64,000 bases of DNA from an uncultured bacterium (lineage in GTDB: Bacteria > Actinomycetota > Thermoleophilia > Solirubrobacterales > 70-9), in NCBI GenBank assembly GCA_963753385.1, contig CAVWCC010000013.1, forward strand, positions 13,612 to 77,611, read 5' to 3'. The number at the start of each line of letters is the position of its first letter. Position 1 is the stretch's first letter. The notes below the pieces were generated by a model. That model saw only the letters and a list, made by a program, of their open reading frames with translations. It had not been told where the DNA came from and did no database searches. A program made the position numbers and the translations under genes. Of the stretch, positions 15,038-25,775 are shown in pieces.

Positions 15038-18000
15038 TTACTCGTCGATGACCGCCCCGAGCCCGGCGAGCACGTCCCGGGCCGTATCCCTTTCCGCCCC
15101 GCCGAGCATCCACCGCGTCCGGGCCGACTCGTAAGCCCATTCGCCCCGCTCGAAGATCTCGAGCGCCTCGCGGAGCGGCGCATCATCCCCGGCCAGCACC
15201 GCGCGGGCGCGGAGCGCCACCGCGGTCGAGAACGGGTCGCCCGCAGGCCGTGCCTCGGCCTGCTCGAGTGCCTCACCAGCGTCCCGGCGACCGGCCATCG
15301 CGAAGATCTCCGCCCGCCGGGCCAGGAACGGGCCCTGCCACCAGAAGCCAGCCCATAGCCCATCGACCAGGTCGACGGCCCGCTCGACGTCGCCGAAGTG
15401 AAGGGCCACCTCCGCCTCGAACATCCGCACCCCGGGAAGCTGCTGGCTGCTTCCGGCGACCTCCTCGGCGACCGAGGCCCAGTCGCGGTGCGCGGCCTCG
15501 TCGCCGCGCAGCCCGTGGATCGTCGCGACGGCCGCGAGGTCGGGCGCGAACGGTACGAACGGCGGCCGCCCTTCGGCGACCCAGTTGTCCCGCACACGGT
15601 CGCCGCGCTCGATCGCCCGGTCCCAGTCGCCGAGCTGGTACAGCGCCTGGATCGAGCGCACGCCCGCGACGTGCGGGGCGACTGCGGCGAGCTCGCTCGC
15701 GTTCAGCTCGTCCCACTGCAGCGCCTCGCGCAACCTGCCCGTCCGGAGCAGTGATTCGAAGATCATGCTGATCGCGTCGCTTCGCTCGAGCGCGACCCGC
15801 GCGGATTGCGGCGCGCGCGCGAGAACCTCAACTCGCTCGCGGTTCAGCTCCTCGACCTCGTCGTATCGGCCCGCCCACCAGGCGGTTGCCGAACCTGCGT
15901 CCAATGCGCAGGATTGAAGTAGGACGTCTTCTGTTTCTTGGGCGAGCTCACGCCCTTCGGCGACCGGCCCGGCCATCTCGTCGGGTCGGCCGTACGACCA
16001 GGTGAGCCAGGCTCGGTCGAGCTTCAGGCGGGCGCCGAGGTCGGGATCGGGATTCGGGGCGAGACGTTCGGCGCGCTCGAGCAGCTCGAGCAGATACGAC
16101 TCCTCGAACCGGCCGGCGACGCCGCCCAGCCGGCTGGCGTACTCAACCGCGATCGCGTAGCAGCGCGCCGCCCCGATCGCGTCGCCGGCCTCCTCGGACC
16201 GCTCGGCGGCAGCGACCATGAGCCGGACCCCGTCGTCGCCGCGCAGCCTGTGCATGGCGAGGTCGGAGGCTCGCTTCAGCACGTCGATCAGACGCTGGTC
16301 GTCCGGGGCGAACCCGGCCGCCTGCTCGGCCAGCTCCTGGGCCCGAGCCGCCGCGCCGCGCCGCGCCGCGTAGGCGCTCGCCTGCGTGCTCGCGTCGAAC
16401 GCGGCACGGCGCCGCTCCTCGTCCGGGTCGAGGTCGGCGGCCCGGGCGAAGTGGAAGGCGATCACCTCGGCGAGCTCGGCGTAGCGCTCGCCGGCCCGGG
16501 ATGCAACCCCGGCGGCGGCGCGAACGTGGAGCTCGACCCGCTCGGCTCGCGTCAGCGAGGCGTACGCGACATCACGGATCAGCTGATGGTGAAACCCATA
16601 GAGGCCGGCCTCGTCGGCCGTCCGGTCCTCGATCAGGGTCCGTCGTTCGAGCGCCACGAGCGCGTCGGCGGGGTCCGAGCCCAGGAGCTCTGCGAGCGCC
16701 TCATTCCGAAACCGGTCGCCGAGGACCGCGGCGTACTGAATCGCGCGCTTCTCCCGCGCCGGCAGCGCGTCGAGGCGCGAGGCGACCGCGGCCTGGACCG
16801 TGTCCGGCAGGCGCTTGCCGACGTCCGCGTCGTCGGCGGCGATCGCGCGGGCGATCTCCTCCGTGAAGAAGGGGTTGCCGCCGCCCGCCAGAGCGATCTG
16901 GTGGGTGAGATCGAGGTCGGCACCGGCGACGAGCGCGGCCGCCAGTTCCTCGGACGCTGCCGGTGCGAGCGGTCCGAGCTCGATGCGCTCGCGGCGTTCA
17001 TCGGCGGACAGGTCCGGCCGGCGCTCCTCGATCTCGGGCCGCGCGGTACAGACGACCAGGACCGGTTGCGCGGGCAGGCGCACGGCGTCCTCGACGAGAT
17101 CGAGGACGCCGTCGTCGGCCCAGTGGAGGTCGTCGACGGCGATCAACACCGGGCGCTCGTCGGCGAGCCCCGCGATCAGTTGGCGCCACGAGCGACGGAT
17201 CGCGGCGGCGTCGCTGTCGGCGTCGCCGCCGTCGAGGGTTGCCGCCAGGGTGGTCGCCGTTTCCTCGGCGCGCGGCGTCCCGACCCGTTTGAGCCGGGCG
17301 GCGAGCGCCGTACGGACCTGCTCGGCGCCGGCGTCGCGCGGAGCATCGGCCGCCGCGCGAAGCAGCTCGGCCAGTGCCCAGAACGCGATCCCGTCGCCGT
17401 AGGGCGGATTGCGCCCGGTGAGCAGGAGCGGGGCGGGATCGAGCGCGCGGACCGCGTCGATCAGCTCGGATGCGAGACGGGTCTTGCCGGCGCCGGCCTC
17501 GCCAACGATCAACACCATTCGCGGCCGGCGCTCGCGAACCGACCGCAGGTAGGCGAGGCGTAGCGCCTCGAGCTCGGCGGCACGACCGAGCAGGGGCGTC
17601 GGCCGCGGTCGAGCCGCAGCGGTGCCGACCGAGTCGCGGTCGCTCGATCCGCGCGCCGGCCGGGCCTCGATCGGTGCCGGAAACCCCTTCGCTGCGACCT
17701 TCCGGCGATCGCCGAACGTCGCCGTCCGGCATGCGCTCGCCGTCCGCGTGCCCACCAGCACCTCGCCCGGCTCGGCGGCCTGCTGCAGCCGCGCGGCGGC
17801 GTTGACGGGTTCCCCGGTCACCGCCAGGTCGCCGCCCGAAGCGCTGGCGAGCACCTCGCCGGTCTCGATCCCGATCCGCAACTCGAGTTCGTCGCCTTGG
17901 GCGGCGAGCCGCTCGACGAGGGCGAGCGCCGCGGCAACGGCCCGGTCGGGGTCGTCCCCGTGTGCGCGGGGCACGCCGAACACGGCCATCACCGCGTCGC

Positions 18001-18172
18001 CGATGTATTTCTCGACCCTCCCACCGTGCTCCTCGAGAGCGATCCGCGCGGCCTCGAAGAACGGTTCCAGCGACTTGCGGACATCCTCCGGGTCGCGCCC
18101 GGCCACCAGCGTCGTCGAGCCCACCAAGTCCGCGAACACGATCGTCGCCAGCTTGCGCTCGGCGCCGTTCAT
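15038..18172 (-). CDS. Class III adenylate/guanylate cyclase domain, P-loop STAND/AAA ATPase and TPR-like repeat protein
   Basis: ORF 15038..18262; the ATG at 18172 gives MNGAERKLATIVFADLVGST...KYIGDAVMAVFG (cyclase). It is followed by VLIVGEAGAGKTRL (Walker A) and a long helical-repeat C-terminus. I see no C-terminal LuxR HTH. Confidence 0.88.
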   Translation of the reverse strand: MNGAERKLATIVFADLVGSTTLVAGRDPEDVRKSLEPFFEAARIALEEHGGRVEKYIGDAVMAVFGVPRAHGDDPDRAVAAALALVERLAAQGDELELRIGIETGEVLASASGGDLAVTGEPVNAAARLQQAAEPGEVLVGTRTASACRTATFGDRRKVAAKGFPAPIEARPARGSSDRDSVGTAAARPRPTPLLGRAAELEALRLAYLRSVRERRPRMVLIVGEAGAGKTRLASELIDAVRALDPAPLLLTGRNPPYGDGIAFWALAELLRAAADAPRDAGAEQVRTALAARLKRVGTPRAEETATTLAATLDGGDADSDAAAIRRSWRQLIAGLADERPVLIAVDDLHWADDGVLDLVEDAVRLPAQPVLVVCTARPEIEERRPDLSADERRERIELGPLAPAASEELAAALVAGADLDLTHQIALAGGGNPFFTEEIARAIAADDADVGKRLPDTVQAAVASRLDALPAREKRAIQYAAVLGDRFRNEALAELLGSDPADALVALERRTLIEDRTADEAGLYGFHHQLIRDVAYASLTRAERVELHVRAAAGVASRAGERYAELAEVIAFHFARAADLDPDEERRRAAFDASTQASAYAARRGAAARAQELAEQAAGFAPDDQRLIDVLKRASDLAMHRLRGDDGVRLMVAAAERSEEAGDAIGAARCYAIAVEYASRLGGVAGRFEESYLLELLERAERLAPNPDPDLGARLKLDRAWLTWSYGRPDEMAGPVAEGRELAQETEDVLLQSCALDAGSATAWWAGRYDEVEELNRERVEVLARAPQSARVALERSDAISMIFESLLRTGRLREALQWDELNASELAAVAPHVAGVRSIQALYQLGDWDRAIERGDRVRDNWVAEGRPPFVPFAPDLAAVATIHGLRGDEAAHRDWASVAEEVAGSSQQLPGVRMFEAEVALHFGDVERAVDLVDGLWAGFWWQGPFLARRAEIFAMAGRRDAGEALEQAEARPAGDPFSTAVALRARAVLAGDDAPLREALEIFERGEWAYESARTRWMLGGAERDTARDVLAGLGAVIDE

Positions 18173-18230
18173 CGCTTCCGACGATACCCCCAGCGAACCG
18201 CGGGCGCGACGGCGGGAGCGACCAGGACGG

Positions 18231-18872
18231 CTAGAGGCTGCGGCGCCGCTCGAGCTCGGCATCGGTCGGCTCGTCGAACTCGAACGAACCCGTGTTGATT
18301 TCGCCGGCTCGCACGTAGGTATTGATCGTGACGCCGGTCTTCGTCACCTTGCTGTCGACAAGCCTCATTGCGGCGGGGATCGCGCCGCTACCGAAGATGC
18401 GCTTGCCGCTGCCGAGTACCACGGGGAAGATCCACATCCGGTACTCGTCGATCAGGTCGTGCTCGAGGAGAGTCTGGATCAGGCCAGGGCTGCCGTGGAC
18501 TTGGATCTCGGGGCCGTCCTCACTCTTGAGCTTGGCGACGTACTCGGCGACATCGCCCGTGATCAGAGTCGAGTTGTTCCACTGCACCTGCTCGAGCGTT
18601 CGCGAGGCGACGTGCTTCCGCGTGTTGTTGAGCTGGTCGGCGATCGGCCCCTCGTCATGGGGCCAGTGGGCCGCGAAGATCTCGTAGGTCCCGCGGCCGA
18701 GCAGCAGCTCGTAAGGGCCGGATTCGGCCACCTGTCCCATCATCTCGTCGTCGAAGTAGTTGACGCCCCAGCCGCCGTGCGTGAAGCCGCCGGTGGGGTC
18801 TTCGTCGGGTCCGCCCGGTGACTGCATGACGCCATCCAGCGAAACGAATGAGTTGACGGCGAGGATTCTCAT
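18231..18872 (-). CDS. Dihydrofolate reductase-like (RibD C-terminal domain) family protein
   Basis: ORF trimmed to the ATG at 18872, preceded by AAGGAGG. MRILAVNSFVSLDGVMQSPGGPDED...LLLGRGTYEIF...IQVHGSPGLIQTLLEHDLIDEY. Confidence 0.85.
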   Translation of the reverse strand: MRILAVNSFVSLDGVMQSPGGPDEDPTGGFTHGGWGVNYFDDEMMGQVAESGPYELLLGRGTYEIFAAHWPHDEGPIADQLNNTRKHVASRTLEQVQWNNSTLITGDVAEYVAKLKSEDGPEIQVHGSPGLIQTLLEHDLIDEYRMWIFPVVLGSGKRIFGSGAIPAAMRLVDSKVTKTGVTINTYVRAGEINTGSFEFDEPTDAELERRRSL

Positions 18873-18952: not shown

Positions 18953-20731
18953 CTAGACGTCGAGAACGCCGTCGATCCCGAGAACGACCCCGCAGGCGAC
19001 GAGTCCCGCGGCAAGCAGGCGGCCCAGCCACCGCAGGGCCCGGCCGCCCGAGCCCTCGGTGGACACCCGCGCTACGAGCCCGGTCAACAGCGCCACGCCG
19101 GCCACCATCGTGCCGGCGGACACCAGAAGGTCCTGGTCGGCACCGGCCCCGAGCGCCAAGACCAGCAGCGCGGGCCGTGCGACGACGGGGATCGCCACCG
19201 GGACCAAAGCGGCGCCCCGGCCGGCGAGAGAGGGTTCGGGCGGGGGTGGGCGCCGGAACAGGTCGCCAGCTCCGGCGATCACGGCCATGATCCCGGCGGC
19301 GACGCGGAACGAGGGGTCGCTGACGTCGAGCGCATCCAGCAGCGGGTCCGCCACGACCGCGACGGCGCAGACGGCCAGTCCGCCGATCGCGCCGCCCAGG
19401 GCGGCCAGCCGGACCGCATCCTGCGGCGACCGCCCCGCGCGGGGGATCCCGAAGGCTGCCCGAGCGGGGTTCAGCGCCAGGATCAGGGCGACCGCCCAGA
19501 GCCAGGCCGACGGCGCGTTGTCCTCGGGGTCGGACACGTCCGGTGAGCCCGCGCTCGCCTCGACGATCGGAATCGTCCGCAGCAGCCCGGCGAGCGCGTG
19601 CTGCTGATCGTCCATCCGGGTCTCGCCGTCAAGGAACCACGCCCCCTCGACCCGCTCGGGGTCGACGGCGCTCGCCGCGTCCTCGGCGTCGGATTGCTGA
19701 TCGACGGCGAGCCCGGCGACGCACGAAGCACGCTCGGCGATCGGTTCCTCGAGATCGGCCATCCTCGGCTCGGACCGCGCCACCAGCCACCATCCGGTCA
19801 ATGCCTCGCTGATCACCCCGTATCCGCCGCCGCGGGGCGTATCGCTCCCGCGGACCACCTCGCCCCACGGCCCGAACTGCTGGCTGACCCACCTGGTCGC
19901 GCTGCCGAACAGCTCCGCCTGCCGGCGCCCGTAGTCGACCTCCGCCTCGGTGAGCGGCGGGTCGCCCCGCTCGGGGAACTCGACGGTCTCCGCGGCGCCG
20001 TAGGCGGCCCAGTGATCGGGGAGGGCCGGCCAGTTGTCCTCGACCTCGTCGCGCGAGGTCGCGAGGTAGGCGCCGATCCGGTCCGCCGCCTCGTCCCAGC
20101 CCTCGCCGGGAAACGCCCGGTGCAGGAGCGCCAGCGCCCAGTACGCCTCCCCGGTGTAGTAGTCGGAGTACTCGCCGGCCACGGGTTCGCCGGCCACCGG
20201 GTCGTACTGCGCGAGCACGGCGCCGGTCGGCTCGGCCTGGGTGAGGAGGAAGCGCCCCAGCCGGCGCAGCTCCTGGTCGTAGCGCTCGTCACCGGTGGCC
20301 TCTCGGCGGATCGCAAGCCCGGCCACGAGGAGCGCGCTCGCTCCGGTTGAGACCTCGCCGAGGTACTCGACCGCGGCCCAGCCGTCGCCCTCATAGAGGG
20401 TGTCGAGCGCCCACTCCGTCCCCCGATCGGCCGAGCGCAGGGCTCCCGGCAGGTCCGCCGCCGCAGCCTGGTAGAGGCCCATGGTGACCCCGGAATGCCG
20501 GACCGCGTTGTACTCGGCCGCGGCCAGGTCGTCATCGGCGTTGTAGAGGTAGAGCCAGGTTCCGTCGTCGTCCTGGTTGCGGACGAACCAGTCGACGCTT
20601 GCCTGGGCCGACTCGCGGAGCTGCGGTGCGGTGACCGCCGGGCAGTGCTCGGGCGGGGCGACCGCCACGAACGCAAGCGAGACCGCCGCCGCCAGCACGA
20701 GGCCGGCCCTCCAGAGGCGTTTGGCGATCAC
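18953..20731 (-). CDS. Fusion protein: secreted alpha/alpha-toroid (prenyltransferase/terpene-cyclase-like repeat) domain plus a C-terminal MarC-family membrane domain
   Basis: N-terminal signal/anchor segment, then repeats such as VRNQDDDGTW and GDGWAAVEY. The C-terminal ~190 aa has about 6 hydrophobic segments with SFRVAAGIMAVIAG and LVPVAIPVVARPALL, resembling the MarC motifs FRIAGG and PLAIPLLAGPG. The GTG start overlaps the upstream stop (GTGA). Confidence 0.7.
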   Translation of the reverse strand: MIAKRLWRAGLVLAAAVSLAFVAVAPPEHCPAVTAPQLRESAQASVDWFVRNQDDDGTWLYLYNADDDLAAAEYNAVRHSGVTMGLYQAAAADLPGALRSADRGTEWALDTLYEGDGWAAVEYLGEVSTGASALLVAGLAIRREATGDERYDQELRRLGRFLLTQAEPTGAVLAQYDPVAGEPVAGEYSDYYTGEAYWALALLHRAFPGEGWDEAADRIGAYLATSRDEVEDNWPALPDHWAAYGAAETVEFPERGDPPLTEAEVDYGRRQAELFGSATRWVSQQFGPWGEVVRGSDTPRGGGYGVISEALTGWWLVARSEPRMADLEEPIAERASCVAGLAVDQQSDAEDAASAVDPERVEGAWFLDGETRMDDQQHALAGLLRTIPIVEASAGSPDVSDPEDNAPSAWLWAVALILALNPARAAFGIPRAGRSPQDAVRLAALGGAIGGLAVCAVAVVADPLLDALDVSDPSFRVAAGIMAVIAGAGDLFRRPPPPEPSLAGRGAALVPVAIPVVARPALLVLALGAGADQDLLVSAGTMVAGVALLTGLVARVSTEGSGGRALRWLGRLLAAGLVACGVVLGIDGVLDV

Positions 20732-21864
20732 TGTTCGTTCGCGGGCACGGGGGCGGGCATCATCTCGCGTCCCGAGCGTCGCGCGCGACGGACCGCGGGC
20801 AGGAGGAGCACCGGGAGCGCGAACCAGGCGGTCAGCGGCAGGCGGCTGAACGCGAACGCGACCGCGGGCCCACCGCGGAACACGGTGCCGTCCCGGTCGG
20901 TGACCTCCGGCGCCGAGCCGGGAGGACCGGGCTCGATCCGGAAGCGCGCGAGCCAGTCAAGGGCTCTAACGCTCGCGCCCAGGCGCCGGTGCCGGGCCGG
21001 GTCGAGCCGGAGCACGCGGTCGCGGGTGGAGGGAACCGCCCACACCAGGAGCACGGCGATCCCGAGCAGCGAGAACACCTGAACGGACGCCGACGTCTCG
21101 ATCGAGAGGTGGAAGACGACCGCCACCCAGACTGCGGCGTAGCGTGTTCCATGCCACCAGAGCCCGAGCGCGATGAACACCTCGGTGAGCACGATGAACT
21201 TCGCCGCGGCGACGTGGAAGCCCTGGTCGGTGAGGACCGAGATCGCCCAGTCCGGTAGCGGCCACGCCTCGAGGTCCTCGCGTGCCCGGACCACGCGCTG
21301 CCAGGTCACGGTGCCGCCGAACCAGTCGGGATCGACGAGCTTCGACAGGCCCGACGCCCCGTAGATCGCGGCGCATTCGAACCGCAGCAGCCAGAGAGGC
21401 CAGCCAGGCGCTGCGGTGTCGAGGGGCGGCCGCTCGCGACGGCGGCGGAGCCAGGCGTCCAGGGACAGCTCCCGCCCGCACGGTGCCACCGCGAGCAGGC
21501 CGAGCACGATGATCAGGTACGCCCGGTTGTTGTGGAAGTGGGTGGTGGAGAGGAAGACGTTGTAGGTGACGATCCCGAAGGTCGCCACCGTCGCCAGCCG
21601 GGTCAGGAGGCCGAGCGACATCGCAACCGCCGCCAGCGCCGCAACCCAGAGCAGCCCGACGTAGACCCCCTCGGGAAGCTCGGGATACCAGTTGGCGTAC
21701 GGCTCGTGGAACGCGTCTCTGTACGTCTCGCCGCTCGACGCGTCGGACAGGAAGGGCTCGAGGTGAAGGAGGACGATGGGCCCGGCGAGCACCCGGAGGA
21801 GGGCAAGGGCCCGCAGGCTGACCGGCCGGCCGAGCAGCTCGTCGAACCGCGCCAGCGCGCTCAC
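20728..21864 (-). CDS. HTTM (vitamin K-dependent gamma-carboxylase-like) domain membrane protein with a C-terminal extension
   Basis: ORF 20728..22515 trimmed to the GTG at 21864, which overlaps the stop of the upstream gene (GTGA). Sequence: LRALALLRVLAGPIVLLHL...[16 protein letters not shown]...WPLWLLRFECAAIYGASGLSKL. Confidence 0.8.
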   Translation of the reverse strand: MSALARFDELLGRPVSLRALALLRVLAGPIVLLHLEPFLSDASSGETYRDAFHEPYANWYPELPEGVYVGLLWVAALAAVAMSLGLLTRLATVATFGIVTYNVFLSTTHFHNNRAYLIIVLGLLAVAPCGRELSLDAWLRRRRERPPLDTAAPGWPLWLLRFECAAIYGASGLSKLVDPDWFGGTVTWQRVVRAREDLEAWPLPDWAISVLTDQGFHVAAAKFIVLTEVFIALGLWWHGTRYAAVWVAVVFHLSIETSASVQVFSLLGIAVLLVWAVPSTRDRVLRLDPARHRRLGASVRALDWLARFRIEPGPPGSAPEVTDRDGTVFRGGPAVAFAFSRLPLTAWFALPVLLLPAVRRARRSGREMMPAPVPANEQ

Positions 21865-22307
21865 CCGGCGCCCTCGCGCTCGTCGCTTCGCATCACCTCG
21901 ACCTCGGGCGGGTCGTCGTTGTGCCACGAGGTGACCGTCGCCTCCAGGTACTGCGTCTCGCCGTCCCGCGGTGTGTTGTCCGCGACCCAGTCGAGGGCGG
22001 ACTCGAGGAACGCGAGCTGGTTCTCGAGCCCGGCGTCCGCGTGGTGGCGGACCGCGGGATAGCTCAGGCCCCGGTCCTGCACCAGCTCCTCCCAGCGATA
22101 CCCCGACCACGGCTCGGCAACGGGGACGCGCCGGCCGTCGGCCGTGACCCGGACGATGTCCGCGCTCCAGGTGCTCGACTCGGGGAACATCTGGAACGCG
22201 AACTCCTTGTGGTCCGCCCGGTAGCCCCGCGCCACGAACGCGACCTGGAGGCCGACGACGGCCACGACGATCACCCGGCGCGCGACGATCCTGGCCCTCG
22301 GCGACAC
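21861..22307 (-). CDS. Membrane-anchored hypothetical protein, first gene of the HTTM operon
   Basis: 148 aa with an N-terminal TM segment (VIVVAVVGLQVAFVA) followed by a soluble domain. Translationally coupled to the HTTM gene. Confidence 0.65.
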   Translation of the reverse strand: MSPRARIVARRVIVVAVVGLQVAFVARGYRADHKEFAFQMFPESSTWSADIVRVTADGRRVPVAEPWSGYRWEELVQDRGLSYPAVRHHADAGLENQLAFLESALDWVADNTPRDGETQYLEATVTSWHNDDPPEVEVMRSDEREGAG

Positions 22308-22357
22308 GCGCCAACGATGACACCGCGGCGCGCCAGCCGCTTGTCACGCTGTGGGCG

Positions 22358-23179
22358 GTGTACCTGGAGGCCGATACCTCGCTGCTCGACGCGGCGCAGG
22401 CGCTCTGCGTCGCACTCCCGGCTGCGGGCTTGCCCCTGATCCTTCGGCGATTCGGCGGCGGCGGCTGGTCGCTGGTGGCGCCGCTGTCGGTCGTCGCGAC
22501 CGTCGTGGCGATCACCGTGGCGGCCGAGAGCGCCGAGGCACTGACCTGGATCGCGATCCTCCTCGTCCCGCCCGGCTGCGCGCTCGCCCTGGGGTGGGCC
22601 GCTCACGGCGCGCGGCCGTGGATGGCGGTGCTGGTCGTGCCGATGCTGGTGGCGGCCATGATCGCGCCCGACGACCCGGCCGGCCGCGTCGGCAGGCTCG
22701 CCCTGATCGTCGGCTCCTGCGTGACGGTCGGGCGGCTGCTCGCCGGCGCGACGCCGCTGACGCTGCTGAAGGCCGGCGTGTTCGCGATGGCCACGATCGA
22801 CGCCGTCTTCATCTTCGGTGACTTCTTCGGGGAGCAGAACGCGCAATTCAACGCCGCCGCGCCCGCAGGGCTGCCGCGGCTCCAGGTCGCCGAGATCGGA
22901 AACGTCTCGACCGACTACGGCGACTTCTTCGTCGCCGGACTGGTCGGCGGCATCCTCGCCGCCGAACGGCGCCCCCAGGTGCTCGCCGCGGTGGCGACAT
23001 TCGTCGTCGCGCAGGCGTTCAACCAGCTCTTCCTCGTGGTCGATTCGCTGCCCGGCACGGTACCGCCGGCGCTGGTCCTGCTCGCCCTCGAGGTCGTCGA
23101 GTGGCGCAGGCGCGCCAGCCGAGTAGTTGACCAGGTCAATCTGGTCGACCAAGTGGTACCATCACGGCGATGGAGGTAA
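22358..23179 (+). CDS. 9-TM protein with presenilin / signal-peptide-peptidase-like motifs (candidate intramembrane aspartyl protease)
   Basis: About nine hydrophobic segments. ATIDAVFIFGDFF sits in the sixth, STDYGDFFVAGLV in the seventh and VPPALVLLAL in the last. Order and spacing match the YD / GxGD / PAL signature. Confidence 0.6.
   Translation: MYLEADTSLLDAAQALCVALPAAGLPLILRRFGGGGWSLVAPLSVVATVVAITVAAESAEALTWIAILLVPPGCALALGWAAHGARPWMAVLVVPMLVAAMIAPDDPAGRVGRLALIVGSCVTVGRLLAGATPLTLLKAGVFAMATIDAVFIFGDFFGEQNAQFNAAAPAGLPRLQVAEIGNVSTDYGDFFVAGLVGGILAAERRPQVLAAVATFVVAQAFNQLFLVVDSLPGTVPPALVLLALEVVEWRRRASRVVDQVNLVDQVVPSRRWR

Positions 23180-23867: not shown

Positions 23868-25755
<1,888 letters not shown>

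Positions 25756-25775
<20 letters not shown>

Follow-up and report, generated by a model that had tools for sequence, protein, structure and literature searches.

A candidate bacterial family of intramembrane aspartyl proteases with the presenilin/SPP fold in the Thermoleophilia

Presenilin, signal peptide peptidase (SPP) and the archaeal presenilin homologs (PSH) are the only described families that share one particular fold and mechanism of proteolysis within the membrane (PMC2947513). The stretch of DNA analysed here, a window of 64,000 nucleotides from an uncultured bacterium of the Solirubrobacterales (Actinomycetota; contig CAVWCC010000013.1), contains a gene for a 273-residue membrane protein which appears to carry the motifs of these enzymes, and it raises the question of whether bacteria encode such a protease too. 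Homologs of the A22 proteases have been regarded as eukaryotic and archaeal, and those GxGD proteases that have so far been described from bacteria are prepilin peptidases, which differ in structure. An initial annotation of the gene, made from its sequence, had proposed a bacterial presenilin-like protease. The core of that proposal is upheld by the predicted fold and by the conservation of two aspartates, though not by membership of any A22 family in Pfam. We put at roughly 60% the probability that the protein is an active, stand-alone intramembrane di-aspartyl protease of the presenilin/SPP fold (clan AD, GxGD type).

The gene and its predicted fold

The reading frame is a genuine coding gene under purifying selection, as can be seen from the GC content at codon positions 1, 2 and 3 (0.755, 0.491 and 0.908) together with the excess of synonymous codon differences from the ortholog of a close relative (L002; 69 synonymous, 41 non-synonymous). 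Both the Kyte-Doolittle profile and the secondary structure of the AlphaFold2 model give nine membrane helices, at residues 2-19, 35-54, 58-81, 87-102, 107-131, 134-153, 187-202, 207-226 and 235-265. The nine hydrophobic segments of the initial annotation are therefore present, as are the three strings quoted from them: ATIDAVFIFGDFF (residues 145-157), STDYGDFFVAGLV (residues 184-196) and VPPALVLLAL (residues 235-244). In the model D148 lies within helix 6, five residues short of its end, D189 opens helix 7, and the PAL motif opens helix 9.

The main evidence comes from the predicted structure. The AlphaFold2 model of the query protein, built on an alignment of 37 sequences, has a pLDDT of 94.6 and a pTM of 0.91, and when it is compared with the PDB using Foldseek, ranks 1 to 9 are all A22 proteases. 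The top rank by E-value is human SPPL2a (9k93; E 3.5e-3, TM-score 0.53), alongside presenilin-1 (PS1), with TM-scores of 0.52-0.57 for the best-fitting chains, and archaeal PSH (4hyg_B; 0.49/0.54). The best structure from outside A22 reaches 0.27. As a check on robustness, a model was also made of a second member of the family, P0256, a protein 32% identical to the query in which the GYGD and PATVP motifs are canonical. This model has a pLDDT of 93.5 and retrieves A22 proteases at ranks 1 to 14, with the highest TM-scores to SPPL2a (0.62/0.58), 0.58/0.61 to PSH and up to 0.59 to PS1, against 0.18 for the best other fold. Over both models the A22 matches span TM-scores of 0.45-0.62 and involve SPPL2a, PS1 and PSH only. 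Structural comparison, which had been suggested as a check on the initial annotation, does not place the two members in an unrelated nine-helix fold. Hydropathy, the two models and the Foldseek searches thus all show the nine-helix presenilin fold of the A22 group, and on the strength of the models it is very probable that the family shares it.

The 33-residue loop between helices 6 and 7 is also structured. DSSP assigns to the query model a short helix (residues 157-166) and a beta-hairpin (residues 177-180 and 183-186), which runs directly into Y187-G188-D189, and both elements recur in the second model. Conserved residues within the loop are P160, N161, L172, P173 and Q176. Comparable short helix and beta-hairpin elements occur in substrate- or inhibitor-bound PS1.

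Conserved residues, orientation and proposed activity

Conservation was counted over 270 retrieved sequences, in query numbering, and over a smaller, diverse set of 36, all full-length and 30-42% identical to their lead sequence. Neither D148 nor D189 varies in the smaller set, and they are kept in 236/241 and 234/242 of the retrieved homologs (97%), which bears out the expectation that the two aspartates would be conserved among orthologs and puts the feature beyond coincidence. Other positions in helix 7 are also held firmly, including F191 (233/242) and G197 (239/240). G188 is kept in 225/243, with alanine in its place in 11 distant members. Examples of these GxAD members are P0144, P0205 and P0246, which carry 'YADLF'.

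Position 186 divides the family, being aspartate in all 120 of the close relatives, and glycine in 97 and aspartate in 19 of the 122 distant members. Since glycine prevails here among the distant members, and G188 and D189 are near-invariant, the alignment indicates that G-Y-G-D is the true family motif of helix 7 (consensus MGYGDLF) and that the D-Y-G-D of the target's clade is a fixed variant of it. The GxGD motif assigned to this segment in the initial annotation accordingly holds for the family consensus, which aligns to the GLGD of PS1 and SPP, while the query itself, together with the 120 close relatives, has DYGD. This natural variation (D186, A188) is potentially useful for testing how much of GxGD is needed.

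A similar distinction applies to the other two motifs. The literal PAL, as originally reported, is present in the query and kept only in its clade; distant members have V/P/I-A-L/V/A at positions 237-239, with proline at 237 in 31 of about 100 (about 30%). What is invariant instead is P-A/G-T-V-P (P232-x-T234-x-P236), in the loop entering helix 9 directly upstream of PAL and at the same structural position, with P232 in 221/221, T234 in 219/221 and P236 in 214/221 of the retrieved homologs. In helix 6, the resemblance that had been drawn between DAVFIFG of the query and YDVFWVFG of SPP is found in the query's clade, whereas the family consensus around the aspartate is D-x-x-L-V, preceded by V, I or A, with no conserved tyrosine before it. 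The family has a motif set of its own: [VIA]-D, G-Y-G-D and P-A-T-V-P. D148 would nevertheless be the equivalent of the YD aspartate of A22 enzymes, given the one-to-one match of nine helices in the models, its invariance and its place within helix 6. The fold, the GxGD motif, the helix 6 aspartate and the proline-rich turn at the PAL position all speak for including the family in the wider GxGD clan with the presenilin fold, with the reservation that the YD tyrosine is missing and the PAL is not canonical.

The distribution of charge suggests how the protein sits in the membrane. Family-wide, the mean number of lysine and arginine residues is 3.1 in loop 1, 1.7 in loop 3, 1.6 in loop 7 and 5.3 in the C-terminal tail, compared with 0.03, 0.39 and 0.14 in loops 2, 4 and 8. 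By the positive-inside rule, these counts predict an N-out/C-in protein whose helix 6-7 loop faces outward, which is the orientation of SPP and the opposite of that of presenilin. Eukaryotic enzymes in the SPP orientation are those that cleave type II substrates (PMC2947513).

From these data we infer a catalytic dyad, a topology, a substrate class and independence from partners. The helix 6 residue Asp148 and Asp189, where helix 7 begins, may face each other across a water-accessible cavity as the catalytic dyad, and Gly188 (the small residue before Asp189), the preceding beta-hairpin and the PxTxP turn could shape the site that binds and unwinds the substrate helix. The predicted SPP-like orientation points to type II (N-in) membrane helices as the substrates, and the enzyme would then cut signal-peptide remnants or signal-anchor segments. 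Like SPP and archaeal PSH, it would work without partner subunits.

Sequence comparison places the family much further away. HMMER searches with the A22 Pfam families PF04258, PF01080 and PF06550, another check proposed with the initial annotation, returned nothing with the query, even at E-values up to 10, or with any of 37 members scanned singly (E up to 1). The gathering threshold for membership of these families in the Pfam sense is not reached, and when the family profile was run against the PDB sequences, again to an E-value of 10, it retrieved no A22 chain, nor did it match A24. When profiles are compared with hhalign, the similarity to SPP and presenilin is weak and limited to helices 7-9. 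With PS1 (a sequence identical to 5a63_B) the alignment is not significant (E 0.49), and it sets MGYGDlF on LGLGDFI and LPA(T) on the LPA(L) of PS1. With an SPP profile of 25 sequences the E-value is 0.037 (0.02 in a permissive run), and the alignment is confident over helix 7 and its GxGD only. Helices 5-6a align at E 0.19 to SPP and 0.28 to PS1, and in neither case does aspartate fall on aspartate. As a calibration, the SPP profile aligns to PS1 at E 5.5e-5 with YD, GxGD and PAL in register, so that the family is, by this sequence measure, clearly more remote from SPP and presenilin than these are from each other.

Several points weigh against an active A22-like protease. No sequence or profile method puts the query, the 37 members or the family profile in A22, and the E-values to PS1 (0.49) and SPP (0.02-0.04) contrast with that between SPP and PS1. 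The invariant aspartate of helix 6 is present, but no sequence alignment sets it on the aspartate of YD, and the tyrosine of that motif is absent from the family. Foldseek assigns its matches E-values that are modest (about 1e-2 to 1e-3), and AlphaFold2 may lean on folds from its training. In addition, the query's clade has aspartate for the first glycine of GxGD, and GxAD stands in 11 of the distant members; such changes could lower or alter activity.

Some of these points can be taken to suggest that the family has the presenilin/SPP fold and is not a protease, being instead a pseudoprotease, scaffold, channel or transporter in which two acidic residues are kept in the membrane to bind ions or substrates. 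Its extreme sequence divergence from active A22 enzymes, the missing YD tyrosine, the DxGD of the query's clade and the GxAD of some members would all fit this, and a relationship has been drawn between the presenilin fold and that of ClC channels and transporters (PMC4918416). However, the strongest constraint in the family falls on the A22 active-site residues, namely both aspartates, Gly188 and the proline turn before helix 9, and pseudoenzymes usually lose such residues. ClC-type transporters also reach TM-scores of at most 0.16 against the models. We consider a non-proteolytic role unlikely, and an active intramembrane protease remains the preferred reading.

Distribution and genomic surroundings

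The family is large and has gone without a name. Among 8,000 candidates scored from a set of 5.8 billion proteins, 1,747 are homologs at E <= 1e-3, so that the family counts at least 1,700 proteins at 90% clustering. At 50% identity there are 417 clusters, and every homolog that carries a name is called "hypothetical". Single-sequence searches with the target found no match in Pfam, NCBIfam, PADLOC or the PDB sequences. Across about 8 million open-access papers, the phrases tried for a bacterial or prokaryotic presenilin or a bacterial GxGD protease were not found, and among the papers listed none mentioned presenilin together with genera of the Thermoleophilia.

At least 525 loci of the family occur across GTDB species genomes. 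They were surveyed with a 12-sequence alignment, and the counts by taxon and by neighbour cover the best 80 of these loci; the patterns used ([ML]GYGD..., PATVP...) do not catch the target's own DYGD/PGTVP clade. All of the best 80 belong to the Actinomycetota and nearly all to the class Thermoleophilia, with 39-57% identity to the query. Carriers among them include Solirubrobacterales, Conexibacteraceae, Baekduia, Thermoleophilaceae and Miltoncostaeaceae, as well as Solirubrobacter and Conexibacter, and cultured carriers include Solirubrobacter phytolaccae and S. taibaiensis. The target's own clade (77-100% identity) comes from metagenome assemblies only. Paralogs exist in some genomes: contig CAVXDY010000003.1, from a Miltoncostaeaceae metagenome-assembled genome, has two copies about 18 kb apart (L018 and L019), each with 53% identity to the query. 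It is perhaps an even chance that no bacterial lineage of di-aspartyl intramembrane proteases with the presenilin/SPP fold was recognised before this one, an old family, dark at the sequence level and SPP-like in orientation.

Around the target (Table 1), the initial annotation had described a divergent HTTM membrane operon on one side, ftsH on the other, and possibly a neighbourhood for membrane-protein processing. The operon is indeed divergent, with the gene nearest to the target being that for a 148-residue protein, which precedes the HTTM gene. This protein has no family match and is predicted to be a type II membrane protein, with arginine residues before its one N-terminal helix. The third gene of the operon encodes a 592-residue protein, the C-terminal part of which is weakly like MarC (E 8.5e-4, below cut-off). 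A mechanically called open reading frame of 595 residues (20728-22515, minus strand) overruns the 148-residue gene into the 5' end of the target, a typical artefact of high GC content; the HTTM domain begins at about residue 230 of this frame, so the true start of the HTTM gene lies near 21855. The possibility that the operon is an SdpAB-like system for peptide maturation was set aside, with a match to SdpB that is weak (E 0.002, far below cut-off) and none to SdpA. Beyond the operon is a large signalling protein, as judged from its cyclase and AAA_16 domains.

On the other side, ftsH does lie downstream of the target, but a Phd/YefM-PIN toxin-antitoxin pair stands between them, and the antitoxin gene begins within the last 10 nt of the target, overlapping its stop. 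Since close relatives have DCC1-like and DUF899 genes in this place, the pair seems to have replaced them or to have been inserted. No Rfam family reaches its gathering score in the 64-kb window, whether tRNA, rRNA or riboswitch.

Table 1. Features of the target gene and its surroundings, in positions of the 64-kb window
Feature	Position	Strand	Remarks
1074-residue protein	15038-18262	-	upstream of HTTM operon; N-terminal adenylate/guanylate cyclase domain (1.7e-17), then AAA_16 (1.1e-23)
Three-gene operon (148-residue, HTTM and 592-residue genes)	18953-22307	-	divergent from target
HTTM-domain membrane protein	20728-21855	-	start approximate; Pfam HTTM PF05090, 3.9e-24
148-residue protein, first gene of HTTM operon	21861-22307	-	divergent from target, 50 bp away
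Target gene, 273-residue nine-helix membrane protein	22358-23179	+	from open reading frame list; GTG start
Helix 6 (residues 134-153) with invariant Asp148	22757-22816	+	Asp148 codon 22799-22801, proposed first catalytic aspartate; AlphaFold2 boundaries
Loop between helices 6 and 7, predicted extracytoplasmic	22826-22915	+	DSSP on model; outside location suggested by positive-inside counts
D186-Y-G-D189, GxGD-type motif at start of helix 7	22913-22924	+	Asp189 proposed second catalytic aspartate
P232-G-T234-V-P236-P237-A-L239 at entry of helix 9	23051-23074	+	invariant PxTxP, then clade-specific PAL
Arg-rich C-terminal tail (residues 250-273), predicted cytoplasmic	23105-23176	+	mean K+R 5.3 in family C-tails
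Phd/YefM antitoxin, 72 residues	23170-23388	+	Pfam PhdYeFM, 3.6e-8
PIN-domain toxin, 125 residues	23388-23765	+	Pfam PIN, 3.4e-18
ftsH	23868-25775		beyond toxin-antitoxin pair, not adjoining target

In the target's own clade the protease might serve as a processing enzyme for the products of the HTTM operon and for a DCC1-like protein, which is compatible with the proposed general activity. Two relatives with at least 82% identity (L001 and L002) keep the divergent arrangement of genes for a protein of about 140 residues, an HTTM protein and one of about 590 residues. Both have a DCC1-like gene directly 3' of the target homolog (5803-7203 in L001, 6771-7157 in L002), with overlapping stop and start in L002. 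The DCC1-like domain (PF04134) is a thiol-disulfide oxidoreductase domain with a DxxCxxC motif, and in P0394, P0017 and P0011 it continues the reading frame as a fusion at the C-terminus, the end predicted to be cytoplasmic; the fused sequence reads '...VLYDEDCGFCRWS...' (Pfam DCC1-like, 3.5e-13). P0117 probably has the same fusion, according to a precomputed PF04134 match only. In all, at least four protein clusters show a DCC1-like gene that overlaps or is fused. The arginine-rich N-terminus and single helix of the 148-residue protein would also give it the orientation expected of an SPP-type substrate, although this is only a lead.

Beyond this clade the association disappears. The HTTM, 148-residue and 592-residue genes adjoin the target in only 2 of 82 loci (L001 and L002), and neither these nor the DCC1-like gene lie near the target homolog in the 80 Thermoleophilia loci. 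At the target itself no DCC1-like gene is found in the window, the toxin-antitoxin pair filling its slot, and where relatives are at least 80% identical, a shared gene order says little about function. Such a dedicated processing role is, on balance, improbable.

Gene order in the wider family is specific to sublineages. One arrangement has PEPCK on one side of the target homolog and MobA-like/MoaA-like genes on the other, HipA_2 is found in 7 loci, and there are several others; after GC3-filtered clustering of neighbours, no universal neighbour was found across the 80 loci. A divergent HipA-like kinase had seemed to be a partner in 71 of the 80, but this was an artefact of single-linkage clustering, and the gene is present in the 7 loci only. 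The HTTM and ftsH surroundings are therefore local synteny, at most a clade-specific association and not a trait of the family, and the idea of a membrane-protein processing neighbourhood is not supported. The lack of a conserved neighbour is consistent with a partner-independent, stand-alone gene, as the preferred reading of the family as intramembrane proteases would have it.

Relation to known intramembrane proteases

Distance in sequence also bears on whether the fold match itself can be trusted. If it were an artefact of modelling, this would be an unrelated nine-helix family in which the D, GD and P motifs are convergent or coincidental, and with only 36-37 sequences behind the models, weak Foldseek E-values and all sequence-level tests non-significant, there are grounds for asking. 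However, for each of two proteins at 32% identity every one of the five runs gave a pLDDT above 93, A22 alone is retrieved by both models, from three A22 subfamilies, at TM-scores of 0.5-0.62 with all others at 0.27 or below, and the conserved residues fall at the A22 motif sites in helix 6, at the start of helix 7 and at the entry of helix 9. HMMER is equally blind to the links among the known A22 subfamilies. With the SPP profile it reaches PS1 among PDB sequences only at E 0.063 and misses PSH, which was not retrieved from the PDB by PS1, HM13 or SPP-profile searches either. As accepted A22 subfamilies are mutually near-invisible, failed searches of the HMMER type say little, and we think it very unlikely that the fold match is spurious.

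A divergent type IV prepilin peptidase or FlaK-like enzyme (A24), suggested by the bacterial origin and a GxGD-type motif in a membrane helix, is effectively refuted. Pfam Peptidase_A24 matched none of the 37 members (E up to 1), and the 50 best Foldseek matches of each model include no A24 structure. The protein also has nine helices, with the aspartates in helices 6 and 7, and its surroundings contain no gene for a pilin or archaellin.

If the family is active as an intramembrane protease, the presenilin fold extends beyond archaea and eukaryotes. A conserved, widespread bacterial family with this fold and catalytic signature would enlarge the range in which the fold is known, with consequences for ideas of where it arose, and it would point to unrecognised intramembrane proteolysis in a major soil lineage. 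The motif rules would be looser than has been assumed, with no tyrosine in YD, PxTxP in place of PAL, and DxGD tolerated. An active enzyme would offer a small (about 270 residues), apparently partner-free model from culturable soil bacteria (Solirubrobacter, Conexibacter), and might represent a third way, beside SppA and RseP, in which bacteria dispose of signal peptides or type II anchors. The case also suggests that fold-level searches can place membrane-protein families which every profile library has missed.

Among the known systems, the prepilin peptidases and FlaK (A24, PF01478) are likewise polytopic GxGD aspartyl proteases of bacteria and archaea in MEROPS clan AD, but they differ in the number and arrangement of helices and are dedicated to removing the leaders of pilins and archaellins.

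Presenilin-1 and presenilin-2, the catalytic subunits of gamma-secretase (A22A, PF01080), share the fold (TM-scores 0.5-0.59). The spacing from GxGD to Pro-Ala is also similar, at 48 residues in PS1 (D385-P433) and 43 or 48 in the target (D189 to P232 or P237), and the sole hhalign alignment to PS1 sets GYGD on GLGD and LPA on LPA, albeit not significantly (E 0.49). In contrast to presenilin, the target has the opposite predicted orientation (PMC2947513), no long cytosolic loop or endoproteolysis site, and no context of nicastrin, APH-1 or PEN-2.

The closest families, functionally and structurally, are SPP/SPPL (A22B) and archaeal PSH. With SPP/SPPL (PF04258; human SPPL2a 9k93, HM13) the family has in common nine helices, an aspartate in helix 6, GxGD at the start of helix 7 and a proline-containing motif before helix 9, with no sign of obligatory partners. 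The predicted N-out/C-in orientation is that of SPP (PMC2947513), and SPPL2a is matched at TM-scores of 0.53 by the query and 0.62 by P0256. The differences are that the family lacks the tyrosine before the first aspartate, has PxTxP where SPP has QPALLY, is shorter (about 260-280 residues) and without a luminal N-terminal domain or KKxx tail, and is bacterial rather than eukaryotic. There is also no profile match, and the hhalign similarity (E 0.02-0.04) covers helix 7 only.

Archaeal PSH (MCMJR1; 4hyg/4hyc; PF06550) differs from the family in keeping both YD and GxGD, by which it was found in a motif search, and the family has no match to PF06550. The protease activity of PSH is proven, and that of the target family predicted. 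Nonetheless, PSH is prokaryotic and stand-alone, with about 300 residues and nine helices, and it matches both models at TM-scores of 0.49-0.61. PSH also lacks a canonical PAL, having PPL before its last helix instead (PMC2947513), and this PPL parallels the PxTxP/PPAL of the bacterial family.

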